This document shows, piece after piece, positions 8,636-62,371 of a stretch of DNA of 64,000 nucleotides (within the stretch, counting starts at the first letter, position 1; every line of letters starts with the position of its first letter). A program made the translations under genes and the position numbers. The notes under the pieces are model-generated. The model was not told the DNA's origin, made no database searches, and was given only the letters and a program-made list of their open reading frames with translations. The DNA comes from Laetmonice hystrix (taxonomy: Eukaryota), in assembly GCA_965235115.1 (NCBI GenBank), contig OZ249436.1, forward strand, positions 15,378,001-15,442,000. The letters are read 5' to 3'.

Positions 8636-8673
8636 GCCAAACCATAGATGTGTAGACACACCTATGGCCAAAC
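8636..8673. mobile_element. 24-bp CATAG...CTATG remnant (8643-8666) flanked by 7-bp direct repeat GCCAAAC; probable P-superfamily excision footprint
   Basis: GCCAAAC (8636-8642) + CATAGATGTGTAGACACACCTATG + GCCAAAC (8667-8673). Confidence 0.7.
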
Positions 8674-8825: not shown

Positions 8826-9500
8826 TAGCGTAATGCCCCGACCATTGCCTCGTGTTTGCAGAGACAGAGATGAAAACTCATGTAGGCCTACGGGTACTCA
8901 CTAGGTGGCGCCTTATTTCAGAAGGCTTACTTGCCGCTCTGCTGGGCAATGCGACGCCATGACACCAAAGACCTATCAATGATCACTCATCGATCTTTGA
9001 TGACACTAAAGTAATTAGGGGGTGGGAGTGGGGTGTCCTTTAACTGGTTTCTGCCGTACTATAATTATGGTCGAAACCACTCTTGATCTGCCCCTGATCC
9101 TAGCCATTTTAATTCCTATATTACCCTCCTCTCCCCCATCCCCTTTAAAGATTTGCCCTTAACTTAAGGCCCTGGTTGCAAAAACATGCCAAGAAAAATG
9201 TAATGTGTATCCAATAATAATAACTTAAATCTTCTACTCTAAATTCACAAATAGTTTATTCTGTCATAACAAGTAACACAGAATACTCTGCTACCTGCAA
9301 TATGCCTAGATGTTAGCCATGAGCATAAACCGTTCTGTCTGTCTGATGCTGTCAGATGCCACTGAACAAATTATAATCCGTGGTGGGCACAGCCTGATGA
9401 ATTGTCCACATTGAAGTCATGGCCAGCACACAATTCATTGAACCAGGTCCATGGGGTCCAGTTTTATGAGAAATTCACTCAAGTTTCTTCAATAGACGGG

Positions 9501-13690: not shown

Positions 13691-13824
13691 AGTTCTAAGA
13701 ATAACCTATTGCCCATCCTTAAGCATGACAGGCTATGGCAGTGGCAGATCCAGGATGTTTTCCGGTAAACTCACGGATTATCTAAATTAGCACAGGTCTA
13801 ATGAGGGACTTTGTTACCGTCTTT

Positions 13825-14110
13825 TCCGCATGGCGGCAGCACTATCAACCCGGGCCCCTTGGGCCACATTATTATGAAGTTAGATAGGTCGACGAAATGC
13901 TAATCTATCGCTGGGTGCTGTAGTGCTATTTGCTATGAAATATTATGGTACGTTTAGGAGTTCTACAACATGGTGAAGCCTATCAAGTTATCATTTTTCA
14001 TAACAAATAGTCTAAACACATCCTGCCACAGATTAGCATTTCATCGTCCTATCTAACGTCATACTAATGTGTAGCTAAGAGGACCGGGCGACAGTGCTGC
14101 CGCCACGCGG
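13825..14110. mobile_element. Fold-back element/MITE with ~90-bp imperfect inverted repeats at the POLR3D 5' end
   Basis: CCGCATGGCGGCAGCACT...GTTAGATAGGTCGACGAAATGCTAATCT matches the reverse complement of 14030-14110. Confidence 0.7.
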
Positions 14111-14131
14111 ATATGACCTGAAATGTGCCGT

Positions 14132-14141: not shown

Positions 14142-16633
14142 TCTCAAGGAGTGTGAAGTCCCTCATTAATGGGGCTATGTATAGACTTGACCATATTATG
14201 AACCACCTAGTGGACTTAGAGAACTATTATGAATCGGGTATTGTCTGTCTCAAAGGCAGGAGGAAACCCCCAGCATTGCACTTTAAATTTCAAGGCAAGA
14301 TATATTTAACATGCAGAAATCGATGAAAAATTATGCATCTTTGTAGTCACTACTAGAGGGCACCACCTAGACTTTTGGGACAAGTTAATGGTTGTATGAG
14401 GAAAGTCTATCGTCTTAATAACCAATTTGAGACTTAAACTAACACTAACTCTAACACATTGTTTTCCATCGCTCATTAGTCAAACTCACTGACTTATTTT
14501 GCCAGAATACCAGTTTTCGGTATTTGTCCATTTAATTAAATGGAATGCTGTCTAATCCAGTGGTCCCCCAACTTTTTAAAAGTGGTCTCCCCCCCCCCTT
14601 TCAATGAGAGATCCGGACCAGTGAAATCTCCACCCCCTTATCTGATAAAACAGGGCTACAGGCCTAGCTCAATTAAAGTACCGGCATATCTAAAAATACA
14701 GACATCATACCCCGGTATTTCAGGGATGACCCTGACTCCAATTTCTTAGAGAAAAATAGTTTGGTTCCATCTCCAGTTGAAAATAATTTTCGTGCTCTTG
14801 TGTAAAGATCCATGGTATTTTTTTTTAGAAATGGGGAATCCCCTTCCAGGTTGGAGGGACCACACTCGGGCGTGTCACTAGGGGTTCGTCACTAGCCTAT
14901 CCATTACACAGATAGGGCAGAATTCTCAGCCCAGTGCAGAAGTTCAGAACTATTTTATTCTTAAATGCGACTTTGCCTCAACCTAGAACTTAGAAGATCT
15001 AGATCTAGTCCTAAAATGTTACGTAAGGCAGGCATATTATAAACAAGCAAGACAGTCGCGACTAGCGCCGCATGAATAATTTTGAGCTAGGCGGGGAGTC
15101 GAAGGCGAGCGCGACAATCCACCCCGCTGCCTGCCACACACGCCCCGGCTCGCTTAGGCGCTAAGGCCGCGTACGGCTGATGTTACGCACGGTCTTACCA
15201 CGGCACTGTACCAGTACTGGCAGTAGTCAGTACTGCAGGCTACACTGCACGAGTCTTTGCCTAACAGTAACACAGGTCTAATCAGAGAGTGGTCTAATGT
15301 AATAAGTTGTTCGTCAATATCGCCGACCTGCCCTGTGCCACCCCGGACAACTACATTTCTGAATACATGCTTACCACTGACACAAAAAATCGGGTTCGTC
15401 TCCTTGGCCTCTGGCCTTGTTTTCAGGAAATTTCTTACACGTTCATGTTGGTCTCGCGTCCCATTTTTAACCATCGCGCACAAGCCGAGAGTGGCTGGTT
15501 CCCTGCTCCACTCACTCCTCTCTACAGGGTGGCCCACAAAGAAAATCGCAACGGCCTACATCTGCAATATAAAAAAAACAGTTAGACGACTGACACAAAG
15601 AACTCTTGATTCAGTTCAGTGGGGTTGGCTCTAAGGTTAGAGCCATTTTGGTGGAGCAAAGTCGGAAAAATCAACTGTCTCTGGCAGGGTTTCTCTCAGC
15701 TCAGGGATGATTGCCTTTACTTTGCTTCACTAAAATGGCTCAAATCAAAAGTAGGCCTACTCAACCGAATCAGGAGTTCTTGGTGCATTCGCCTTCAAAC
15801 AAAATTCGGAAATATTCTCCAACTATTCAAAGTCAATGGTTTAGGTACGCTGACATTGCGTTTTTAGGGCCAGCCTGGGCGGCCGTTCGGGTTTATCTAG
15901 TTCAGTTTCTAAACGGTGTCTTCAGAACACCGTTTAGTTGTCGAGTGACGCTGGCCTAGCGACTCGTGGACGCTCTGCGAAGAGGTCCGTTATCGCAACT
16001 TTGCGGCCTTCGTTTTGGTACTAAACTTCTTCAACGGAGTATGAAATCGATTTTTATAGAGAGCCACAGTATTGAAATTTCTATTCCGACTTTGATTATA
16101 ATTATTGGACAAATATAACGTCCACACGGTCCGGTTGTTTACGAGCATGTCGGGTCCGTAGGTCCGTCAGCCATCTGCGGTGCACCGAGTGACCGGGAAC
16201 TGATAAAAGTTAGATCGGTACTGGTACCCGAAACGGGTAGCTTCACTCTGTGCCGTCAGCGTCTGCTTGAACAGAGCGCGACCTACTTATGCGGTCCGTT
16301 CCGGATCAACTGTAGAATTGGAAAATACGCACACCCGATAAACTGGGTCACCGCTCGTCACCCGCGCTGCGCTGTATTTGACCAAACAAACTGAGAATTT
16401 CACCTACTAAGATAACATCCAATGAAATACATTTACGTATCTGATGAAGTAACCTCTTTTGTGTACTCTCAGCAAGTTTCAGTGCCAAAAGTGGTCTGAA
16501 ACATGACTTTGAGGCGATGATGCGCGATAGGACCGAGATAGAACCCCGGCAGCATAGCAGTCGCTGGCGCATTTGTACTCGACGGTCAGAGTCCGTATGG
16601 ACGTAAGGACTAGGACTCAGGGGCCGGTTTTAC

Positions 16634-17584
16634 CATAGAACTGTACTGGAGGGAAGGCCAACTCTCTTTCGTGCCCCAATTATCGCTCAAATATGTAGGG
16701 TCGTTCGCAGCGCCCCCATGTGGTTATGAGACCGGTGCTTGGGTGCAACGCTCGGCATAGCACGGCGACATTAGGCCTAGACTCTCTTGGATTTAAACAT
16801 CAACTGGATTATGGATAAAGTGTATAGGCAGTGGAGCAGAATGTAGCAAAGGCTTGGAAAAAATCTAGGTGTCCTAGCAAACTCTTAGATATTTTAAAAT
16901 CAATTACCTAGAATTAAAATCGAGAGACCCAATCAGCGACGTCAGGAACAATGCACAATAGCGCTACGTCACAATGGTCATTTGGAATGTGATCATAACG
17001 GGCCTAAATATTAATGGCGGACGGTGCTTCGCTTCGCCAGTTCAAACGTCTCTAACTGCTAAAATACACAAGGAAGAACGTTGAAACGTGACATAAGGGG
17101 ATAAAATATTGAACCAAACAATGTCACTGACTTAGAATTGTTTAGCAAGGTCCCCCCTTTCTTAATTCAAGCACTGTCATCGCCGGAGATCGGTGAAGTT
17201 TGTGACGTTACAATTTCGTACCCTCGTAATCTGACAGTTTTTTTTGGGTAAATTTTGAAAAGATTAAGTAACAGATGTGAATGCCATATACATTTATAGA
17301 TCGAGGATTACTCTAAAATCCGGCCTGGATAGATTCTAAAATTATTGTTGTGATTTAGTATTTCTAATGGGCCGTTCTTATTGGGGGTTGACCCAAGCCT
17401 TGCGGCCAAGCCCGCTTAGTTTAGGCCTAACTGGCGCGAGTGCATACCCATGTTTACACTTGGGCCAAGGCAGATGACGTTACGGGTCTCATAACCACTG
17501 GAGGGCGCTGCAAACGCATAAGACTACTAGCGCCCCAAGCGGAAAAAATAGAGAGTTGGTCTTCCCTCCCAGTACAGTTCTATG
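16634..17584. mobile_element. 951-bp P/Galileo-like MITE with 7-bp TSD GTTTTAC
   Basis: TIR CATAGAACTGTACTGG(G)AGGGAAG(G/A)CCAACTCTCT at both ends; inner inverted block GCAGCGCCC...GTGGTTATGAGACC; GTTTTAC at 16627-16633 and 17585-17591. Confidence 0.8.
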
Positions 17585-17729
17585 GTTTTACTAAAGGTCC
17601 TTATTTAAGGACGTCGCTAATTTAACATAGAAGTGAATGGGTTGCTAGGTCGAAAATAACGACCTAGCAACCATTCACTTCTATGTTAAATTAGCGACGT
17701 CCTTAAATAAGGACCTTTAGTAAAACCGG
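17585..17729. mobile_element. Near-perfect hairpin MITE (~70-bp arms, 7-nt loop); its left tip (about 16621-16633) was displaced by the P-like MITE
   Basis: GTTTTACTAAAGGTCCTTATTTAAGGACGTCGCTAATTTAAC...GCTAGGTCG-AAAATAA-CGACCTAGC...GGACCTTTAGTAAAACCGG. Confidence 0.8.
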
Positions 17730-17911: not shown

Positions 17912-20900
17912 ATGGAGCGGGATGGAGAAGGCTTTCCCCAATCAAGGGTAAGTTTCTTTCTTATTTTTCGTGTAAGTATGTCCGTTTTTCTTTGTGTATT
18001 TCACAAGCGGATAGTTTACTTAATACCATCGGAATTTACAGGTAACTGAAGTCGGCGTCTATCTAGATCTAACACTCACACTGTCACTGTCAGTGTCAGT
18101 GTCACACAGTCGCACTGCCTGCACTGCCACTGCACTGGCGACAGTCAGTACGTCAAATACTTAGTCGCGCATGAAGTTGATGAACTGTCATCATTGAACC
18201 ATTCCATGTGTCAATCAACCGAGTCATGCTTGTGCAGGTCTCCACGCAAGGCCAGGAATGACCAATGGCAATGGTATTCCTACGTATAGCCTTGGGGACC
18301 CCGCCTTGGGCAGATTATTTATGATGCTATTGCTAGAGTAGAGACGTATGAACTAGTTGTACTGATCTTTATTGATTGTCATTGATCTGATGATTGACAT
18401 TGAATGAGAGATTCATTTAATAATGGTTATTCTGCCGCCGTATGGGATGGGTCATGTGACTGCAATCATTCTTATTGGATGATGTCTGACGGCAGAATAG
18501 CGCGGATTATCTAATTAGAGGGAGTCTAGTCTAAGTCTAGTGCCTAATTAACAACAATTTTGTGACTAAACTAAAGCCCGCCGTACACTTTCCCGATTTT
18601 GCCCAACTCGAGTCGGTAACCATGGTTCCCGACTGCTCCCGACAGCTCCCCACTGCAGTTGGAGCAAATCGTAGCCGATTCGAAAAACGAATCGGGAGCC
18701 GAGCGTGGTTCCCGATTACGGCCGACTGAGCTTAGATTTTCCAACCTTGGGTTCTTCAAAACACGCTCGCGGTGGTAATAACAATGAATTAATTCAGATT
18801 GAAATTATTGCAAAGGAAACTAGAGATATGTGGCTTTTATCCAGTATAAAATTTAATAAAATTATAGATTTAAGGATTCTTTTTCATACGGCCATTCGAA
18901 AATCATCAAAAACGTATAAAAAACCTGAAAACGCGTAACTTCTCTACCTTGCAGGTCTTGCCATGCAAAATCTGTCGCGACGACCTATACAAAAAAGTAC
19001 CCAGAAATTTTCCCCACATCGTAAGGTTTCCATAGATGTCTTTCTTTTAGCGAGACTCCTTTTAGTTATGAATACAGCGAGCTTTGTTTGGAAATTTAAA
19101 AGTTCCCAAAACTTTGATAATGACGTTAAATATCACAATAGAAAGCCAGGCGCCAATCGAAGCTGTGTAGGATCAGGGGCCTATAATGATGTTTACACAG
19201 ATATTATAATGCTATAATTTTCAGAGAATATCTACTGACCTTTGAAGTTTCTGTGTCTGTAGTATTTTAATGCATCTGTTGATAAAACGAGAGCTAGACA
19301 GCAAAATAGTGCAGTCTACGTTAGATCTAAGCCTTCTCTTCACGGCTCTGCCGCACGTCCTCATTATGACGCCACAGCCTTTTTGTCAGTGAAACATTGT
19401 AATTTTATGTATCAAAATACGTAGTTAACTATTATGATGTCACAAGTGACAATGAAAGCTAAACAGGTCGAGCAGTTAGTCTTCACACTATTATCACCTA
19501 GGCTAGAAAGATTATAATAACACTTTCTGGGCGTTCAAGTGGGGGTTGAACTGGATGACCTCCCAACTACGGTGCCGATCTATGGCCGCCAACACTGCAT
19601 GGGTCGGGAGCAAATAATCGGGAGAGTGTACGGTGGTCAGTCGGGAGTCGGGAGTCGGGAGTTGGGCAAAGTCGTGACAGTGTACGGCGGGCTTAACACT
19701 AACCGAGGGACTCCTAGTTTTAAAAAATTTCCGGAGGCGTGTGCCCCCGAACCCCCCTAGCAGGGATTCGCACCGATCGGGACTCGCGTCTGTATCATAA
19801 CGAATTCACATCCTATTAGTATTAGGCCTAAGTTGCCCGACCAATCATGCGATCGTTGCGCCGTCCCTGTAACCCTAACCCTAACATGTTGTTTGACCAG
19901 TGTCAGTAATAATTTAAACTATACATGTAATTTATAATTTATTCTGCTGTCTGACGGCAGAATAACCACTTTGTATTTTTAAATGGCAGTGGTTATTCTG
20001 CCGGCGTATTAATGGGTCATGTGATGACAATACTGGATTTTTATTCAGTTATTGGATGGTGTCTGACGGCAGAATAGTGTCATTAGTGCCTAATTACAAT
20101 TTTGGGATTAAACTAACACTAACCCTAGGCTTTAACCTTAACCCTAACCCAAACTGTGCAAACATATTGTTTCGTGTCGGTAATAATTACTGATTTATTT
20201 ATTCTGCCGTCTGACAGTTTCTAGATCGCCGGTGGTTCGGCCCCACCATGATAATGTTGACATCAATCAATCCAGGGTGTATTTTTGATCGCCGCCATGT
20301 TGTACTTTTGTCCCGAATGGAATATACTACAACGTATTTGATTGGCTTCCCACTTTGAGAACCGTGTTACCATTGGTCCGTCATTGTACCCAGTCAAGTG
20401 ATACTTTGTCAACCACGTGCTATTCGAAACACGTGTTGAAACCACAGACATCGTTATATGAAAAATCCTCGGTTGAAGGGAGCTTCCAGATCGCTCTTCT
20501 AGAGCAGCTAAGGGGAGCTATTAATCACTCCCCTGCATTTTTCAAATCCTAAGGTCTGAGACCCCCCACCCCCCTTAAAGAAAGGCAGTAGTCTGAGTGT
20601 AGCATGTGTACAGTAGAGGGCTGGGTATCTAGTAAGATCTAGACAATAATATTGTTATTTGTTTTCTTTTTTCTACAAGAATGTTTGCACATTGATGTAC
20701 CATAGTGATTTTCATATTGAAGGATACATGCAATTCCAGACTCTCCTTAAGCAGGAACACAGCATTTCTGCTATATTAAGGAGACTTGTTAAAATTATGT
20801 ATTCTACAGAGTCATGTTGGTGGAACTCGCATTATGGATGAGATGTTCAACATGTTTGACTCCGAGTCCACTACATTAAACTGCCTTAGTGACAGCATCA

Positions 20901-23900: not shown

Positions 23901-26900
23901 AGCAAATGCGAAGGAGGAGCATCTCCGTCGGTATCTCCAGAACCTGGGTCACATGCCTGCTGCCCAACGCCTACATCAGAGTCAGCCAGTTGGTGCAGAG
24001 CCTGGTATCTGTGACACTGGAAGCAGTCCAGGACAGGTCAATCTATGCACAGAGTCAGCACCAGGGGGCGTGCTCAATAAGATGGACACCGGGATGAGTA
24101 CCAAAAGTGTGAGCATAGCCACTGACTGCAGCTCGTTAACACGCAGCCTACAGACTGAGTTTGATGCTCTTCAGCAGAGCCTTGTTGACCAGCAGCAGGC
24201 TCAGCTTGGCCAGCTATTGATGGAACAAAAACACCAACAGCTACTGATGCAACAAGAGTTCCTGAAGCATGAGGCCATGCTGCTGAGCTCAGGCAGCTCC
24301 AGCCAGGAGGGGCAGCTCCAGAAGTGGCAGGAGAAGCAGCTCCTAGAGCTACGGGAAAAGCAGGCTCAGCTTATGCAGCAACACCTGACAATGCAGCACC
24401 AAATGAAATGTCAGATGCAGCAGCAGCAAACTGAGCTACTTCTGCAAAGTCAAGCTATGATGGTACAGCAGCAACAACAACAGCAAAAACAACAACCACA
24501 GCTTTATCAATCAGGTCTTCAAGCTACCATGACATCACAACAGAATGGAAAAAAACGTCGTCGGAAGACCTGGCAAGAACAGCAGGGTACAGAGCTTCTG
24601 GTTGCCCAACAACAGGTTGAATCTAATGATTTCATTAATACACATCAAGAACTCCAAAATGGTCAACAGCCATTCTCTGATCGCCCAGGTGCCTTGCCAT
24701 CCATTAGTAATCACATTCTCCAACGAAAGCAGGGACCTTATTTTGCATCCATTGCCACCAATCTGTTAAATGTACAAAGTGATGACACTTTATCTGGGAG
24801 CTGTAGGTCAAATGTAGGTTCTGAAGGTGTTAGTGGGACTTCCTCCAGTGTTAACAGGTCAGGTGTTCCTGTCAGCCTTGAACCTGATTTCCACAACTAC
24901 AAACCTCAAACTGGTGGTTCCCCTGAAAGCGTTCATACCAACCCCCAACATCCACAACATGGCAAGAAAAGGGTAAGTTTCTCTGACATGGATACTGTCA
25001 CAGAAAATGGGTCAGTCACATCACGAAGCACAAGCAGCCAGAGTGTCAGTCACAGTGGTCTTTACACTGAAACAGGAGGACCCTACTATAAACTTGGCAA
25101 CCAGTATTTTCCTGTGCCAAGCATAGAACCAGTTCCAGAAACAGGAGAATACGGTGATGTAAGTGTCTTGAGTTGTGATTCATCATCTCCAGCCCGTTTG
25201 GTTGGGGGAGTGTATGTTGCCTCTCCTATCTCCAGTTGTGGATCACGTACACCAAGGAGTAACCGTGCCAGTCCAAGAACTCCAAGACACATAGCAATGG
25301 CTGGACCCAAACTGACTCTTAATGACACAGTAAGTTGGTAGATGTTTTGATTATAATCAAAAGATTTTTTTTTTTAGAATCTTTTAAAATAAAAAGTTTT
25401 GTCATTCAAAAATGTTTGAAACCTGATAATTGCTACTTTTTGCAAATATTTTCTGCACTGAATATATTTCTTTGTTATGGTACCTTAATGATTAAGATTT
25501 CTCTCGCAATTGTCTAATATTCATGTCATTTTTCTCTGAAGACTATCCCTGTAGACCTTCAAAAGAAGTTTGAGAGAGTGTCTGCTGCAGTCAAAGGTTA
25601 CCTGACCCGGCGTTTGATGAGGTCCGACAAAGTCCAGCAGATCATTAAGACTGTCACTGTTAGTAGTCATGTTTGTGCTTTTCATTACCGGTATATATAG
25701 GGCAATTCCATCGTAACTGACGTAACATTCAGACATTTTTGGGGGACATTTTCTTCTTAAAATTCTGGGAAATATTTCACTTTTCAAATGAACTTTCTGT
25801 CATATTGGAAGGTGGCAGCGAGACTTATAAATTACATTATTACTTATAGATCCTTTGATTCTGGTCTCCTCCTCAGTCATCAATAAAATCATCGTAACTG
25901 ACGTAACATAAAATATCAGTCCCTAGGGGATAGTCAAATTAAAAAGCTAAATTCTCTGAATGACACATGACAGAATGACAATGACATGAACTAAAGTAAT
26001 GTTGATAACCTTTAATACCATGCAACAATAATTCGAGAATACAAACTATCATGTACAGATTGTCATGGAACATATCCTGCGTAACTGACGTAACATCATA
26101 ACGTAACTGACGTAACTCTATCGAATGTTGATTCGGTTATGCAGGATATGTTCCATGACAATCCGTACATGTATGATAGAAATTACATGACCTGTAGTAA
26201 ACTGTTAATGTTGCACCAGTTGGGTTGTGATGTACCCCCCTCCCCGTCAAATTCCTCCCCCAAAGTCAAACAGGCAGGTCTCAAAGTATACCGCTATGCC
26301 CCTCCTTACTGTCATACCTAAATCTGCATCATGAGTTGGGTCATGATGTACCCCCCCCCCCTCCCCTTCCACCACTTAAACAGTAACAGTAAATTACAAC
26401 ATGTCGTTAGGGAAATATTTAAAGGACAATATATTGCGATGTGTGTCCATCAGGGTTTCTATATTATGGAATAGTTAAAGGTCAGTTAAAATTTCAAAAC
26501 TTTGCAAAAATGCTCCTGATTTCATTTAAGTTGGGCACTGTGAATGACGTCACTCCTTGAATAATGATCGGACCATAGAAGATTGCAGATTGATGCACAC
26601 TGTCGATGTCAGCTGTTCTGGGCCACTGAAATGATGTCACCCCATCTACAGTTACTTGATGCAGGAACTTGACATCCCAAAAGCCATCTTGGATACTTGG
26701 TTTGAGGATGCGGCCAATATAGAAACGGTCGATATAATCGACTGCATAGTATGACTCGGGTTCAATTTTCTTCTCCTGTGTGGCACTAGTAGAAGTGGAC
26801 ACTGCTTCTGGTGGAACTGCTGGGGCAACTACGCTGGAGGCCTGCTCTGGGATGTCTGCCGTATGGGCTACTTGTGGGGTTGCTACCAATGCATTGTTGA

Positions 26901-29900
26901 ATGGGCTTACAATTTCAGCTTGAAGTTGAAGTGAACCCTGGGTGGTGTGGATATAATGGTGAAACCTCAATTGCGGGATGAAAGCTGGCTTGTGCTCATC
27001 CCATAGTTCATCCAAATCTTTTCGCACTTGTGCAATCTCATTTGAAGCCACATAGATGACTTTTACGTTGGGACATGCCTCTTTGGCGACCTGTGCAACT
27101 TCCACTGCACTGTTAACAACAGTCTGTCCTTGTAGTACCCGCCTCCATACAGCGCGTTTCACTGTTCCGCCCACGCCATCAACAGGCCCTTTACCATGGG
27201 CTGTAGCAAAGAATGACCAGTCCACCATCTCTAGGCCCATGTGAGTTTTTGATGGCCAATTTAGGAGGCTCAGACTGAAGCGGTTTTTAAACTGGCTTGC
27301 AGCCCCATCAGAGAAGATGTGCAGGCGTTTGATTCTTCCATCGGCATTAGCATATTCCAGGATTTTTCTGTTGAATGTAGCCACAGCGTATTTGTCATGA
27401 TGAAGTTCCTCACTCACGATAACAAATGAACTACGGCCATCTGAGGTATTCAGGACTGCTGTGAAGAGTGTTACACCCATGGAAACCCAGTGTGCGGACA
27501 TGACTTCATTTTGCTGCTTGATGCTGTAGTTTTCAGAGAAGTCCTCTTGTAATAGTGCCTCATCTTCAGCAAGCTGGCCTTTCAGTGACTTGATCGCTCT
27601 CAACTGGGTTTTGGCTATGAAGACATGCCTCCTCATGATCCCCAACTGCTCTACCAGTGCTGCTTCCACTTCAGGCACAGATGAACTCACAAGCTCTTTC
27701 TGGTATTGGTTGTTCCACTGGTAGTAGTTCACCGTGATACTAGCATCATCATTTGTGCCGAAAAGCTCTCTGATCAACGAGTCAAAATCCTTGCAATCAT
27801 CACAGTTACCCAGATAACATTCCATATTCCACCCACACACACTCTGTAGGATCAGTGCCTCAGATGTTGGTATATTTGGCTTTTGCTTTCTGATGCCATT
27901 TACAAGCAGTTCAAAGTTTTCGTGATACTGGCAACAACACACGTTCTGGTCCTTGTCCGTCACAGAAACAACATTTTCTGGACGTAAGGCGGCAAACTTT
28001 GATTTCCCGATTTTCACCTCAGGGAACTCAATTTTGAACTGTTTGAATGCCTCCATAACAGTCATAATCAGAATTTTCTTCTGTAGTCTCACACGCTCTC
28101 CATCCTTCTTGACAGTAATGAAGTCCTTCTTCCCAGGCTGTTGACGAGAGATTTCATCTGATAGGTAGAATGTTCGGACAATCTGTTCTGTTTTGTCCAT
28201 TGATGAGTTAGAAGGGCTTGACTTCTCTTGTCTATCTATGGTGAATTTTTTTGTCAATTTTTTTATGATGCAAACTTGCCGTCGAGGACTTGCTGGTAAA
28301 GCATTCTTGACACGTCTCATGGCTTTACCCAGACTCTGAGCTGATGGAAAGGCTTTTGAAGGGGAGCCATTAATAGAGGCAGGACTTGCTACAAGATCAG
28401 ATTCCCTTTTCCTTGCTCGCATTTTCTGCATCCTGAGCTTTGTTTGCATGCTCGCTTGTCTTCTTTTATTATCATCCCATTTTATCCGGCAATACTTCTG
28501 CTGAGCTGCATTCCTCTTGCGTGCTGCATTACGCTTCTCATCAGACATATTCGCCCGATATGCTCGCATTCTTTCTCTTGCAGTCTTTGCCATCTGGAAA
28601 GAAACCGGATACCTGCAGTGAAACAATTTCTATGTTTGTCTAAAAGTATAAATTGTTTTTGTTAAAGAATCATAAATAATCAGTAATTGTGGTGTTGTGG
28701 TAATTAAAAAATGAGTAATACTCAATTAAATCATTTTTGAGGAAAAATGGAAATGTGACCTTGAAAAATTGTTGACTTTGAAATGACAAATCAGTTTAAG
28801 AAAAAGAAAATTTGACCTTGAAAAATGTTTTACCTTGATATTTGACATTGAACTGACAAATCATTTTTAAGTAAAACCGATAATTTAAACTTGAAAAATT
28901 TTTGACCTTGAGATTTGTCCTTAAAATTGTCATTTTTCATTTTTGAATAAAAATGAAAATTTAACCTTGAAAAAGTTTTGACCTTGAGATTTGACCTTGA
29001 AATGACAATTAAATCATTTTTAGGTAAAAATGAAAATTTGACCTTGAAAAAGTTTTGACCTTGAGATTTGACCTTGAAATGACTATTAAGTCATTTTTAA
29101 GTAAAAATGAAAATTTGACCTTGAAAAAGTTTTGACCTTGAGATTTGACCTTGAAGTGACAATTAAATCATTTTGAGTAAAAATTGGAATTTGACCTTGA
29201 AAAAGTTTTGACCTTGAGATTTGACCTTCAAATTACATGGTATTGCTACTTACCTTTGGGAAGTGTGCATAAATCTGTAGGCCTGTGGAGCCTTGGATGT
29301 GCTCCTGATGACTGCTGAGGCATGACTGACTGTTCCTCCCATATTTATAGGTTTATAAGCGAAAATCCGGACCTCTGAGAAAGCACCCTCTCTAAGTCAC
29401 TCCAATACTCAAATCTGTGCTTTCTCCTTTGAGGTTTTTTCTGCACAACTTAGCTCCCAATTATCGCAGAAAGACATGGATGGTATCAAATTGTAGCTCT
29501 CTTCCTAAGCTATTTTATTTTTGGGTTAATTAATTAAATATTTATCGTATTTTTATACAAATTTCACTCATGTTGATGACAAGGCTTTTTCAAGATTTAT
29601 TTTCGTAAATATTCAAATTTTATGAGGATGTGATGAATTTTGTTTAATACCTCACATGAAACATCACATTGAAGTATAACGTATGGCGTTAATAAATTGG
29701 CAATGAGCAGAAGCAACAGTTTGAGAGGCCAAAATATTCTGAAAAGAAACAAATATTTCCAAATTTATGTATATCTGGTCTGGTTGCCTTGACTACCAGC
29801 AACTTGTCCATAAGGCATGCCTTATGAATAAGTACATATTACAGTAGGGTACTGCAGCATCCGGGTCCTTCAAAAAAGTATTAATTTGAGTAGCCCTGGT

Positions 29901-35573: not shown

Positions 35574-37044
35574 CCTGCTTCTGTCAATCTGTGGAAGGGC
35601 GGAATGAAACACCAGGACATGAGGGGTTGGCCTTGAGATTGAAGATCAAGAAGGAATATGGCTTGTTGCCATTACTTAGTTTGATGACAGACACTGACAT
35701 TGATTAGAGGCTTCTTATGAAATCACTTATGTTTGAAGTATACCGTAGACTACTCTACGCCTATAAGAATACTCATTACTGTTACAAAATTTACTACCAA
35801 ATACTGTCAGGACCCCGCTCAAGTAAGATGGAGCTAGAATGGTGCTATTAGAATGTCAGATATTGAAATCAGTTGTCAGCAAAAACTGATCAGTGATATG
35901 TGGATGGCAAGGTTATGTACAAGTGAGTTGCATTTGGCAGTTGATGTGTGCTTCTCCGATGGGGAAAGTACATGTACTTCCTGCAGCTGTGATATTAGAT
36001 GTATCTGACGTTTGTAAAAGGAAAGACCTTTTTCTCACAAGATGTGGTGAAATGTCAATGAAGCAGGAGCTTAAAGAAACGCACATCTCACAATAGTTTT
36101 GAAATGTTCATGGACGACTTGGTATCAGTCGCTCTGGTGGCAGTAGAACGCAGTAGATATAGGATAAATTTCTTGTCAGGATATAATGATAATTGTACTC
36201 ATAGTTTCTAATTATACTTTTTACATTATCTTTCGTAGATGTCCAGCCATTTTAATGTTTGTCTTCAACCTGGGAACCCTACAAATTATAAAAAAGCTGG
36301 TGTGATCTTTATTAGAGCTTTTCTTTTCAAATAACTGTCAAAAGTTGGCATTTACTATTGAAGACATCGTCCATGGGGAGTGTTTAGGGATGATCTAAGT
36401 TGTATTTGCGGTCTTCAGCAGAGCTTGCAGCCACCTATTGACTATATATCAAGGTGTTTGAAAAGATTATTGTTTCAATTAGGATATCAAGAAGATGAAT
36501 GTCTTTCGTCGCTGAACCTCAGATCTGAAGGGCCTTTAGAAACACTCTCAACACCTCATCGAAGTTTGTAAGACAGATGCCCAACCAATCCTGTGATACT
36601 TTATTAACTGTCTAGTGATCGTTGGTTTTACTTTCCTGATTAACTTTCAAGTCGCTTAGAAAAAAATTAGGGAAAGGTCTGAGACAGCTCTGCTGAACTT
36701 TGACAAAATGGCAATACATACTGCATTGATTGAATTTTTGTCCAGTTTTCTTCATGTGTAATTTTTCCAGCTGTGTAAATATAAAGTTATCTTTTGTTGC
36801 TCCAGAGTACCCCTAGATGATATAGGACTGTATAAAATGTACATATCGTTATCTGTTTGCCAGGCAAATAAAACCTGACTCATGTCTCAAATGAATCTAT
36901 CGTTTTGAACAAATTTAACCTCATAAGGTCTGTGTTATAAATTCGAGTTTATTCTCCTTAGAACAAAACGTCGCAAATTGAAATATAATTTATACGTTCT
37001 CACTTTTTACCCGCTAAGAACTAATAATAGCTGAAATCCATCAA

Positions 37045-37078
37045 GTCTGGCCATAGATGTGTACATCTATGGTCTGGC
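37045..37078. mobile_element. 20-bp CATAG...CTATG remnant (37052-37071) with 7-bp TSD GTCTGGC; probable P-superfamily excision footprint
   Basis: GTCTGGC + CATAGATGTGTACATCTATG + GTCTGGC. Confidence 0.72.
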
Positions 37079-37094
37079 TGGCCAGGTGCGCGTC

Positions 37095-37278
37095 AAGCGT
37101 TGCCATGGCATTGGGGAGGGGGCAGTTGCTAAGCGACTACCGCAGCGCCACATCAGGCGGCGCCACTGTGCTGGACATTGGTGGCGGCATCTGGCGTAGG
37201 CCTATATAGAGGGGAGCTCTTTGGTGGTGAAGGCAAGATTGATTCCTGACGTCACTCGGATCCAACCCTGAACCAAGC
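37095..37278 (+). promoter_or_regulatory. ACO2 promoter: X-box-like motifs, TATA-like CTATATAG and CRE TGACGTCA (37247-37254)
   Basis: GC-rich segment directly upstream of the ACO2 ATG with these motif matches. Confidence 0.55.
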
Positions 37279-55701
<18,423 letters not shown>

Positions 55702-60252: not shown

Positions 60253-62371
60253 TCAAAAATGTGGAAGGCAGACTTTTCCAGCAAACAGTTCTGAGATTAC
60301 TGTGATCCACAGGGCCAGTACAAAGAAGATGTAGGATATTCCGACTTGGTAGCTGCTTGGAAGCTGGTACGGCTCGCCTCCAATCTGATCCATATCAAAT
60401 CCAGTCGGGAAAATCACAGCTGCCTGACAGAACATTATCACTGTAAGAAAATGTGAAAAATTTAGAAGTAGGTGCTTATATTTCTTTGAGTGACTGAAAT
60501 GGGTGAATTTGATTTATCTTGTTTTACGTCTTTTGTAACTTTTGCAAGAAATTCAATGTTAGGGAAATGATTACAGGTTGAATACAAATCTTGGAATATC
60601 TACAATGCAGCACTGCCAAATAAACCCTTATAAGTTATTAGACTTAAAAGACATAACCTCTTATAAATGACAAATACATACTTGCAACAAAGCCTAGCCA
60701 TCGAGCAAACTTCATGACATTGTATTTCCAGTATGATACAGCCAACAAGATGATTGTTACTGTGACGCATATAACACCAAGTGCTATACAAATAAACGTC
60801 AACAGCCACTCTCCACGAACGTTGTCGGGCGTGAAGCAGGAAGTTTCTCGACCATAAATTGTCACACATGTCTGGAGGAGACCTATATATGTGTTCCCTG
60901 TAATACCAAAAAGAGTAGTATTATTACATATCATATACATATCTAAATTCAAGCAAGGCAGCGGAACAGATAATATATTGGGGGGGGGGTCCACTTTGCA
61001 AAAATTTCTATCAGGCCAAAGGAAAATACGTTTGGATAAAAACCAACACAAAAAAAACAAGGTCTTGATTACCCCATAGATGTTAGTTAATCCACAATCT
61101 CATAAGCCATAATAAATCTTCATAAGCCATACAATTATTGGGGGGGCCAGGCCCCCCAATAAAATTATGGGGGGCAGTGCCCCCCTGCCCTCCCCCCCCC
61201 CCCCGCTTCCGCCGCTTAGGCCACTTATAAAGTTCTTCATTTTCTGTACTTTCCTTCACTGTTCAAACATGAAATTTAAACATGGTATTCTCAGGGATAT
61301 TGTTATCAAATCTCCAAGGGAGGTCATTTGAGATTTTGGACCTTCTCTAAAACAAATTTTGGACCTTTTTCTTAGGGGCATGGTTTAGGCCTCCAGATAG
61401 TTTACAAAAGATCCAAAATTGTGGACCGTTTTTGTAAGTCACTGGGTCAGAGGTCCAGATATTTTACAAAAGATCCATTTGTTGACCTTTCTTTCTGGCA
61501 CATGGCTCAGAGACAAATGCCCATGATATCCCACAAAGCATCCAAAATTGTGGACCTTTCTTTCTTTCAGAGTCAGACTCAGAGATAAGTAAGATCTAAA
61601 ATAGTGGACCTTTTTGGGGGGGTTGTCAAAATTCAAGGGGGGCCAATGCCCCCCTGATAAAAATATCCCTGTTACTGAGAATAAAAGGCAACTTTTAAAA
61701 TGCCGTGGCACTGATAACGCGTGGCCATAATAATGACAGGAGTAAGTAAGATCTAAAATAGTGGACCTTTTTTGGGGGTTGTCAAAATTCAAGGGGGGCC
61801 AATGCCCCCCTGATAAAAATATCCCTGTTACTGAGAATAAAAGGCAACTTTTAAAATGCCGTGGCACTGATAACGCGTGGCCATAATAATGACGGGAGTA
61901 AGTAAAATCTAAAATAGTGGACCTTTTTTGGGGGTTGTCAAAATTCAAGGGGGGCCAATGCCCCCCTGATAAAAATATCCCTGTTACTGAGAATAAAAGG
62001 CAACTTTTAAAATGCCGTGGCACTGATAACGCGTGGCCATAATAATGACGGGAGTCCGTATAATAATAAAAATGTATTAATAGGTCCCGTATAAAAACAA
62101 TATTAGCATACTGAAATTCCCCTATTATCGCCCATGTATACATCTGAAATTGATTACATTTCTTGGCATTTGGCCCTGCAGAAAGATATGAAATTATTTC
62201 CATCCGAACACACTTGGATGCAGGCATCATCCTGCGGAGTGCCTTTTACTCGGAAATACTTAACTTACCCCCAACATCAGAGACGATCCAGTTGGGCATG
62301 GCCAGACTGGCGATGGCGAAAAGGTCGGCAGCGAAAAACAACGCTCCCGAAATTATGCTCAATTTGTCCAT
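60253..62371 (-). CDS. MOSMO: Modulator of Smoothened (C16orf52/ATTHOG) tetraspan protein; exons 62371-62269, 60897-60682, 60440-60253
   Basis: MDKLSIISGALFFAADLFAIASLAMPNW, GLLQTCVTIYGRETSC, ARWLGFVAMIMFCQAAVIFPTGF, GGEPYQLP and LFAGKVCLP closely follow vertebrate MOSMO; two phase-1 GT-AG introns. Confidence 0.9.
61586..62054. repeat. Three near-identical 156-157 bp tandem repeats in MOSMO intron 1
   Basis: Units start at 61586, 61743 and 61899 and differ by only a few bases. Confidence 0.92.

Follow-up and report, generated by a model that had tools for sequence, protein, structure and literature searches.

Probable excision scars of P-superfamily transposons with 7-bp target duplications in an animal genome, and the cut depth they suggest

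Taken together, our scans of one 64-kb stretch of Laetmonice hystrix DNA (the window) and of the 627-Mb animal assembly that contains it reveal hundreds of short transposon scars that fall into at least seven families of terminal inverted repeat (TIR). We think it likely that these stubs are the end-joined donor sites of excised P-superfamily elements with 7-bp target site duplications (TSDs), and that the inner cut is placed by a conserved inner TIR motif and not by a count of bases from the tip. The system works like the fly P element, with the superfamily features found through its coding relatives. The original prediction read such stubs as excision scars left by a long staggered cut, a reading that an empty allele, full-length parents and sharp arm limits now favor as far as sequence can tell.

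In the window, CATAG..CTATG ends stand between identical 7-mers at 37052-37071 (GTCTGGC), 8643-8666 (GCCAAAC) and 16634-17584 (GTTTTAC). These are the three insertions originally predicted; their duplications are exact, and the two hits of up to 40 nt and three of up to 1200 nt lie far above the 0.005 and 0.01 per window expected by chance in 200 simulated windows (order-3 Markov). The statement that no comparable insertion exists elsewhere in the 64 kb proved wrong, as a 34-bp scar with the TSD ATGACAC is present at 8966-8999. A G-N5-C form of the TSD survives as a tendency but not as a rule (34/85 sites outside the window), and the notion of one transposon system applies to the two stubs, which share a family, but not to the longer element, a MITE whose TIR departs from the stub TIR after base 6, so that the three insertions represent two families.

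The focal stub is a recent insertion, and its empty allele exists. The 20-bp scar (37052..37071, + strand) is made of 12 nt of one family-A tip and 9 nt of the other with one base common to both, and on the sequence it is bordered by a left GTCTGGC duplication at 37045..37051 (+), the sole copy kept in the empty allele, and a right one at 37072..37078 (+). Four sequencing runs (X1-X4) cover the region, X4 being spliced and the other three DNA-like. Runs X1 and X2 carry the stub at 37045, and comparison of haplotypes, proposed originally as a check for an empty site, found a contig of run X3 in which exactly 27 bases are absent at this point, namely the stub and one duplication. Since the runs are filed under one sample, the X3 allele comes from either the other haplotype or another individual, which contigs cannot distinguish. 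The identical 20-mer is found at 6 places in the genome, 5 of which have unrelated flanks and each its own 7-bp TSD. A second locus, seen as a 267-nt contig in runs X2 and X3, has a GTCTGGC duplication around a 24-nt family-A scar.

Downstream of the focal stub lies the first coding exon of an aconitase (ACO2-like) gene (37279..37311, +), identified through a spliced X4 contig that joins 37309/37311 to 39042, with Aconitase Pfam matches in later exons. The ATG at 37279 places the stub 208 bp upstream, in agreement with the roughly 200 bp first proposed. In X4 the contig of the upstream gene stops at 36782 and that of the aconitase gene opens at 37279, so the stub falls in a 500-bp gap upstream of ACO2; because the latter contig begins at the ATG itself, it cannot mark the start site. 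In the ACO2 promoter region (37087-37204) two alleles, which differ by 3 substitutions, a 1-bp insertion and an 8-bp deletion, are present in all three DNA-like runs.

As neighbors Pfam also supports SHMT, RPC4 and, weakly, CCP110. The 24-bp family-A scar, which with its GCCAAAC duplications occupies 8636..8673 (+), has arms of 13+11 nt with one substitution and lies 12 nt inside a minus-strand GT donor, downstream of TATA- and CCAAT-like words; this is 12 nt into a putative first intron of SHMT. Pfam matches support the SHMT gene, and its first exon would be placed here by the donor and the TATA-like and CCAAT words; of the predicted relative at the SHMT first exon, the stub and its GCCAAAC duplications are confirmed, with the exon itself a candidate and the stub in the putative intron. 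The 34-bp scar (17+17) has CAAAGA..TCTTTG ends of another, CA(A)AGA-ended family and, including its ATGACAC duplications, spans 8959..9006 (+) upstream of the putative SHMT start. The 951-bp MITE, a family-B element that spans 16627..17591 (+) with its GTTTTAC duplications, is a deletion variant of a ~1087-bp family. It interrupts the left end of a 144-bp palindromic element (17584..17727, unstranded), the other arm of which carries one GTTTTAC and so acts as an internal empty site for the MITE. The CCP110-like gene has a putative first coding exon (17912..17947, +; phase 0) that is in frame with an exon at 20810, and PF16025 matches, below the curated cut-off, occur in the next two exons; the candidate ATG at 17912 is in phase with these exons and 328 bp after the MITE, much as predicted (about 330 bp). 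A second promoter-like stretch near 20280 may be an alternative for this gene.

Several further features were observed in the window. Between CCP110-like exons, positions 26494-28629 (-) hold an uninterrupted frame of 711 aa, flanked at 25709-26171 and 28723-29220 by repeats, both inverted ones and tandem ones of 76-77 bp; this frame has no Pfam match at E<=0.01, is in our estimation DDE-transposase-like, and is probably a coding DNA transposon. A 1.1-kb element with 36-bp inverted ends (18574-19694) has a middle that is 70% like family-A bases 825-1179. We also noted an Attenuator-of-Hedgehog exon at 60647-61099 (-), a 156-bp tandem repeat at 61612-62079, and a 128-bp imperfect inverted repeat at 13819-14117, close to the RPC4 5' end.

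Across the assembly, the scan for TSD-flanked CATAG..CTATG-type stubs suggested at the outset was positive. With looser patterns, family-A-type ends gave ~74 sites in the 20-28 nt range plus 33 that measure 29-39 nt, and CATAGAACT-ended sites numbered 128, in each case against 0-1 for reversed controls and with some tandem or repeat-borne copies included in the site counts. The exact 7-bp duplication was kept at 40 of 47 inspected stubs. Among the long family-A stubs 31/33 measured 29-34 nt, and none exceeded 39 nt in a search that reached 59 nt. The family-A parent is a non-coding element of 1267-1303 bp with a 39-bp TIR and a 7-bp TSD, represented by 70 ends and also by a 225-bp deletion derivative; judged by their sequence, the 20- and 24-bp stubs correspond to the joined tips of this 1.3-kb element. 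Family B, to which the MITE belongs, is a young sister family of family A: among 23 near-full copies, 20 retain the two ends along with exact 7-bp TSDs, the window's 951-bp copy is 98-99% identical to its closest relatives, and the two families, unlike in their TIRs, have ~350 internal bases in common at 82%. This internal module (family A 162-505, family B 174-533) also occurs at L252:3712-4018 and in other repeats and contains CCAAT-, ATGGCGG- and ACGTCA-like words; it is possibly a captured promoter fragment. A matrix built from 79 sites gives the target palindrome TWnGTNWNACnWA.

Some scars have had a later history of their own. Together with their TSDs, they have been amplified into tandem arrays at G000 C1:22248147, C1:33277323 and C1:47351948 (units of ~75, 94-98 and 39 bp), and single scars ride in other repeat families (L212, L236, L237, L241, L248; L278-L282) and inflate copy counts. 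Inside some P scars we find TAGGCCTA (L286; G000 C2:18417676), which in L286 reads as a later 6-bp addition at TA.

Membership in the P superfamily with a 7-bp TSD, as originally proposed, is upheld by coding relatives with CA..TG TIRs, a transposase of THAP, HTH, RNase H and GTP-binding domain (GBD) and its catalytic residues. PF21787 matches occur at at least 90 places (150 of 217 candidates scored), and of 20 such loci that were opened, 6 have TIRs and 7-bp TSDs at their borders and 1 has an 8-bp TSD. A distinct P element of 7.1 kb (L115:1449-8554), with CAGAG/CACAG termini and a TSD of 8 bp, coexists with the 7-bp clade. Family C is a 12.1-kb CATAG-ended element with 7-bp TSDs, present in two copies that are 99.5% alike, one of them at G000 C7:1084287-1096430. 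Pfam recognizes THAP, HTH, RNase H and GBD in its exons, some of which taken singly fall short of the curated threshold; among named proteins, those closest to its predicted product come from Priapulus (65%) and Biomphalaria (60%). The transposase at locus L105, which also carries P-transposase domain matches in Pfam, aligns with the fly structure PDB 6P5A at E=4e-47 and keeps D230, D303, D528 and E531, and the L120 exons have matching catalytic motifs when read by eye. The TSD is 7 bp in families A-C and E-I, and 5 of the at least seven scar TIR families have P-transposase-coding parents with 7-bp TSDs, one of them CATAG-ended. Family A is another matter. The full elements with CATAGATGTGTA TIRs, sought as carriers of a P transposase, were found in non-coding form only: its ends, paired and single, held no P-transposase match when fetched and scanned, and no coding element with the CATAGATGTGTA TIR was found, the nearest PF21787 match lying 52.6 kb from any of 82 ends (150/217 candidates scored). 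With no family-A end within 52 kb of a transposase match, we infer that the mover of family A is a relative, and both non-coding families, A and B, would borrow transposase from related coding families.

The length of tip retained in the scars bears on the cut. In family A, 39 ends have the 17-nt prefix, of which by eye 12 continue into the full TIR, 27 leave it at base 18-19 and none falls between these two groups. The arm limit is 17 nt (27 places, up to 3 of which may have 18), and none of the fetched scars fully explained by two arms needs an arm of more than 17 nt, though the family-A TIR has 39. A family-A variant one base longer has an arm limit of 18. For family B the limits are 17 on the left and 18 on the right (28 places), and for family C 19 on the left and 18 on the right (36 places), the last fitted after the fact and with key scars that have imperfect TSDs or none; the two tips of family C are unlike, and by eye most informative scars carry one of each. 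When the TIRs are aligned, a spacer that differs in length is seen to separate the outer tip from the inner block RGAWNNYCRACT, and each arm limit falls one base before RGAWNNYCRACT.

This rule was recorded before we searched families E, F, G and H, all of which have coding parents and for which the alignment predicted 17 (G), 21 (E), 18 (F) and 18 (H). Family G gave a 17+17 join among the best 100 of 122 matches, family F a 36-mer of 18+18, family H 18+18 at two sites, and family E joins of 21+20, 21+18 and 20+19; the E arms finish with a run of G, in which slippage could pass for added length. Among 40 long-arm scars fetched, TSDs and unrelated flanks were confirmed for the principal cases of families E, G and H and for several of family B; many 34-mers read equally well as 17+17 or as 18+18 minus 2. 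The rule held in the four new families, with three exceptions of one or two bases overall: an 18+15 event of family G amplified in a repeat (5/5 fetched copies have common flanks), one family-C scar that needs 20 nt or a filler base, and one family-E arm with seven C, one base too long. A simpler version based on the first RGAW was rejected, as it predicts 18 for family E, for which the anchored block has to be used in full to obtain 21. Likewise rejected as separate events were two blunt family-C joins of 16+17, being one event copied.

On the evidence of these sequences, the arm limits suggest that the inner nick is set by a motif and not by a fixed 17-nt ruler. It is probable that P-superfamily transposases do not count off 17 bases and that this nick falls one base outside the conserved inner TIR block, with spacers absorbed by a looped-out strand and overhangs of 17-21 nt that differ even between the two ends of one element. 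The fly enzyme cuts one strand of the P element at its tip and the opposite strand 17 bases further in (PMC7776569, section 7); in the fly structure, as section 8 of the same source describes it, the inner half of the TIR is gripped by the HTH, with disorder at bases -14 to -18. Spacer length varies here at the stretch that matches these disordered bases, which by analogy would allow slack for variable spacers. We found no report of a variable P stagger or of genome-wide P scars in the literature covered, which lay mostly outside subscription journals and Repbase.

The course of events we favor begins with insertion at a GTNWNAC-like site, whose 7 bp are duplicated in the copies we see. By analogy with the fly enzyme, a THAP/RNase-H/GTP-binding-domain transposase would then excise the element with a long stagger, so that the tip stays behind on either flank in single-stranded form. 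These tails would be trimmed and joined, a pathway suggested by junctions that are blunt, have 1-2 shared bases or contain filler, to give scars of 17 to ~45 nt, mostly 20-35, between two TSD copies. The longest tail would measure 17, 18, 19 or 21 nt, as the arm limits indicate, and its end one base before RGAWNNYCRACT would mean that the spacer between outer tip and inner block sets the overhang.

Depths specific to each family would fit equally if every transposase measured a set distance of its own from the tip, with TIR spacers that had merely co-evolved, and the families do have different transposases; we consider this unlikely, given that the two ends of one element differ (17 left and 18 right in family B) and that limits of 17 and 18 belong to family-A variants whose lengths differ by one base. 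It is very unlikely that the stubs are instead products of internal deletion, whether through a hairpin or slipped-strand deletion between the TIRs or through aborted gap repair. Pairing between TIRs is feasible, P elements are known to undergo aborted repair (PMC4168063), the 225-bp derivative of family A exists and a few over-long arms may stem from such events, but breakpoints of this kind should scatter along the 30-39-bp TIR, and in family A there are none between base 20 and 39; blunt joins at the arm limit moreover recur (17+17, 18+18). That the 20-mer is itself a mobile micro-element we find scarcely credible: its identical presence at five unrelated sites with different TSDs speaks for it, against which stand the heterogeneous junctions over more than 100 family-A sites, stubs that have no inner TIR block, and recurrent junctions in fly repair as well, where the tables of PMC2895639 include 14 isolates of one.

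The promoter claim is the weak part of the earlier reading, which held that each insertion marks a gene 5' end and that the lineage homes to promoters. In the window, which was chosen for its insertion cluster, all four sites do lie in or beside CpG-rich promoter-like stretches within an otherwise depleted block (800-bp windows with CpG o/e >=0.7 cover ~15% of the 64 kb), and 400 kb of random DNA contained no scar. Outside it, 85 sites (60 scars and 25 MITEs, five duplicated-context loci dropped) were compared with 40 random 10-kb regions by proxies that are crude, made without gene annotation and liable to miss promoters of unmethylated genes. Promoter motifs averaged 0.87 at these sites versus 0.63 in random DNA (p=0.017) and CpG o/e exceeded 0.75 at 43/85 versus 36% (p=0.014), but there was no difference in mean CpG o/e (p=0.10), no local CpG peak (42/81 positive, p=0.82) and no excess at island edges (2/6 vs 16/55), and at only 4/85 sites were there three or more motifs. 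Other CpG tests were not significant (p 0.06-1.0). A CTCF-like motif was present at 7/57 versus 3%, in a set that includes the window's own sites and with 640 windows of the 40 regions treated as independent. Host exons were found in the vicinity of 9/40 scar loci and of 3/40 random ones (Pfam, 203/355 candidate coding segments; hits were classed by eye, those to transposons or low-complexity sequence were set aside, and the five duplicated-context loci were dropped), and a site upstream of a recognizable N-terminal exon was found at 3/40 and 1/40, respectively.

Strong homing to housekeeping gene starts is therefore unlikely in our view. It draws on the four window sites and the empty 400 kb, on the position of the focal scar in a 500-bp gap between two transcripts, on the known preference of fly P elements for promoters (PMC7776569, in part) and on the mild excess of motifs, CpG and host exons; against it are the few motif-rich sites, the flat CpG profile and the island-edge counts given above, the 5/9 host-exon matches that place the scar downstream of the matched exons, and the several scars that sit in repeats or tandem arrays. 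The bias fits a slight preference for DNA that is open and unmethylated, as has also been suggested for the fly P element (PMC7776569), and not homing. Insertion would on this account lean mildly to CpG-rich, probably open DNA, which in methylated gene-dense blocks like the window would mean promoter islands.

Similar to what we observe here, the available portion of PMC7776569 describes Drosophila melanogaster P with CA..TG ends, a short TIR (31 bp in the fly, ~30-39 here) and a THAP-HTH-RNase H-GBD transposase with the same catalytic residues, found here in the coding relatives. The scars have the form of fly end-joined P excision sites, in which two trimmed tips lie between both TSD copies and are joined bluntly, by microhomology or with filler (PMC2895639, Tables 1 and 3). 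However, the TSD is 7 bp here and 8 bp in the fly, the overhang would be 17-21 nt and vary by end where that of the fly is constant at 17, the coding elements here are multi-exon and 6-12 kb long, and the promoter preference, by our proxies, looks weaker. Galileo and 1360/Hoppel likewise belong to the P superfamily and have a 7-bp TSD (PMC4168063 and PMC3573991, as far as available), but their ends and sizes differ. The system had been called Galileo-type, and indeed its 7-bp TSD and its palindromic GT..AC target match (GTATTAC in D. willistoni according to the same portion of PMC4168063, GTNWNAC here); it is nevertheless not Galileo, as its TIRs are only ~30-40 bp, with no long, internally repeated foldback TIRs. 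The P-MITEs of Anopheles form non-coding families whose TIRs match those of coding P masters around unrelated middles, a pattern that resembles families A and B, but they have an 8-bp TSD, and for family A no exact master was found (PMC1562414, partial text). Zebrafish Pdre2/THAP9 provides a P-type transposase outside insects, one that is active and acts on CA..TG ends; unlike here it has a 13-bp TIR, an 8-bp TSD and larger flanking deletions reported after excision (PMC10983969, from the part available).

What is new here is the empty allele, the parent elements, the inner-block rule, tested on predictions made beforehand, and a test of promoter homing that came out largely negative. If our reading is true, the cleavage chemistry could be deduced for any P family from nothing but the sequence of its genomic scars. 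The TIR-based depth rule also offers a spacer-swap test of inner-strand nicking, for which young coding elements are available, and the scars would constitute a dated, polymorphic record of P-element landings and departures.
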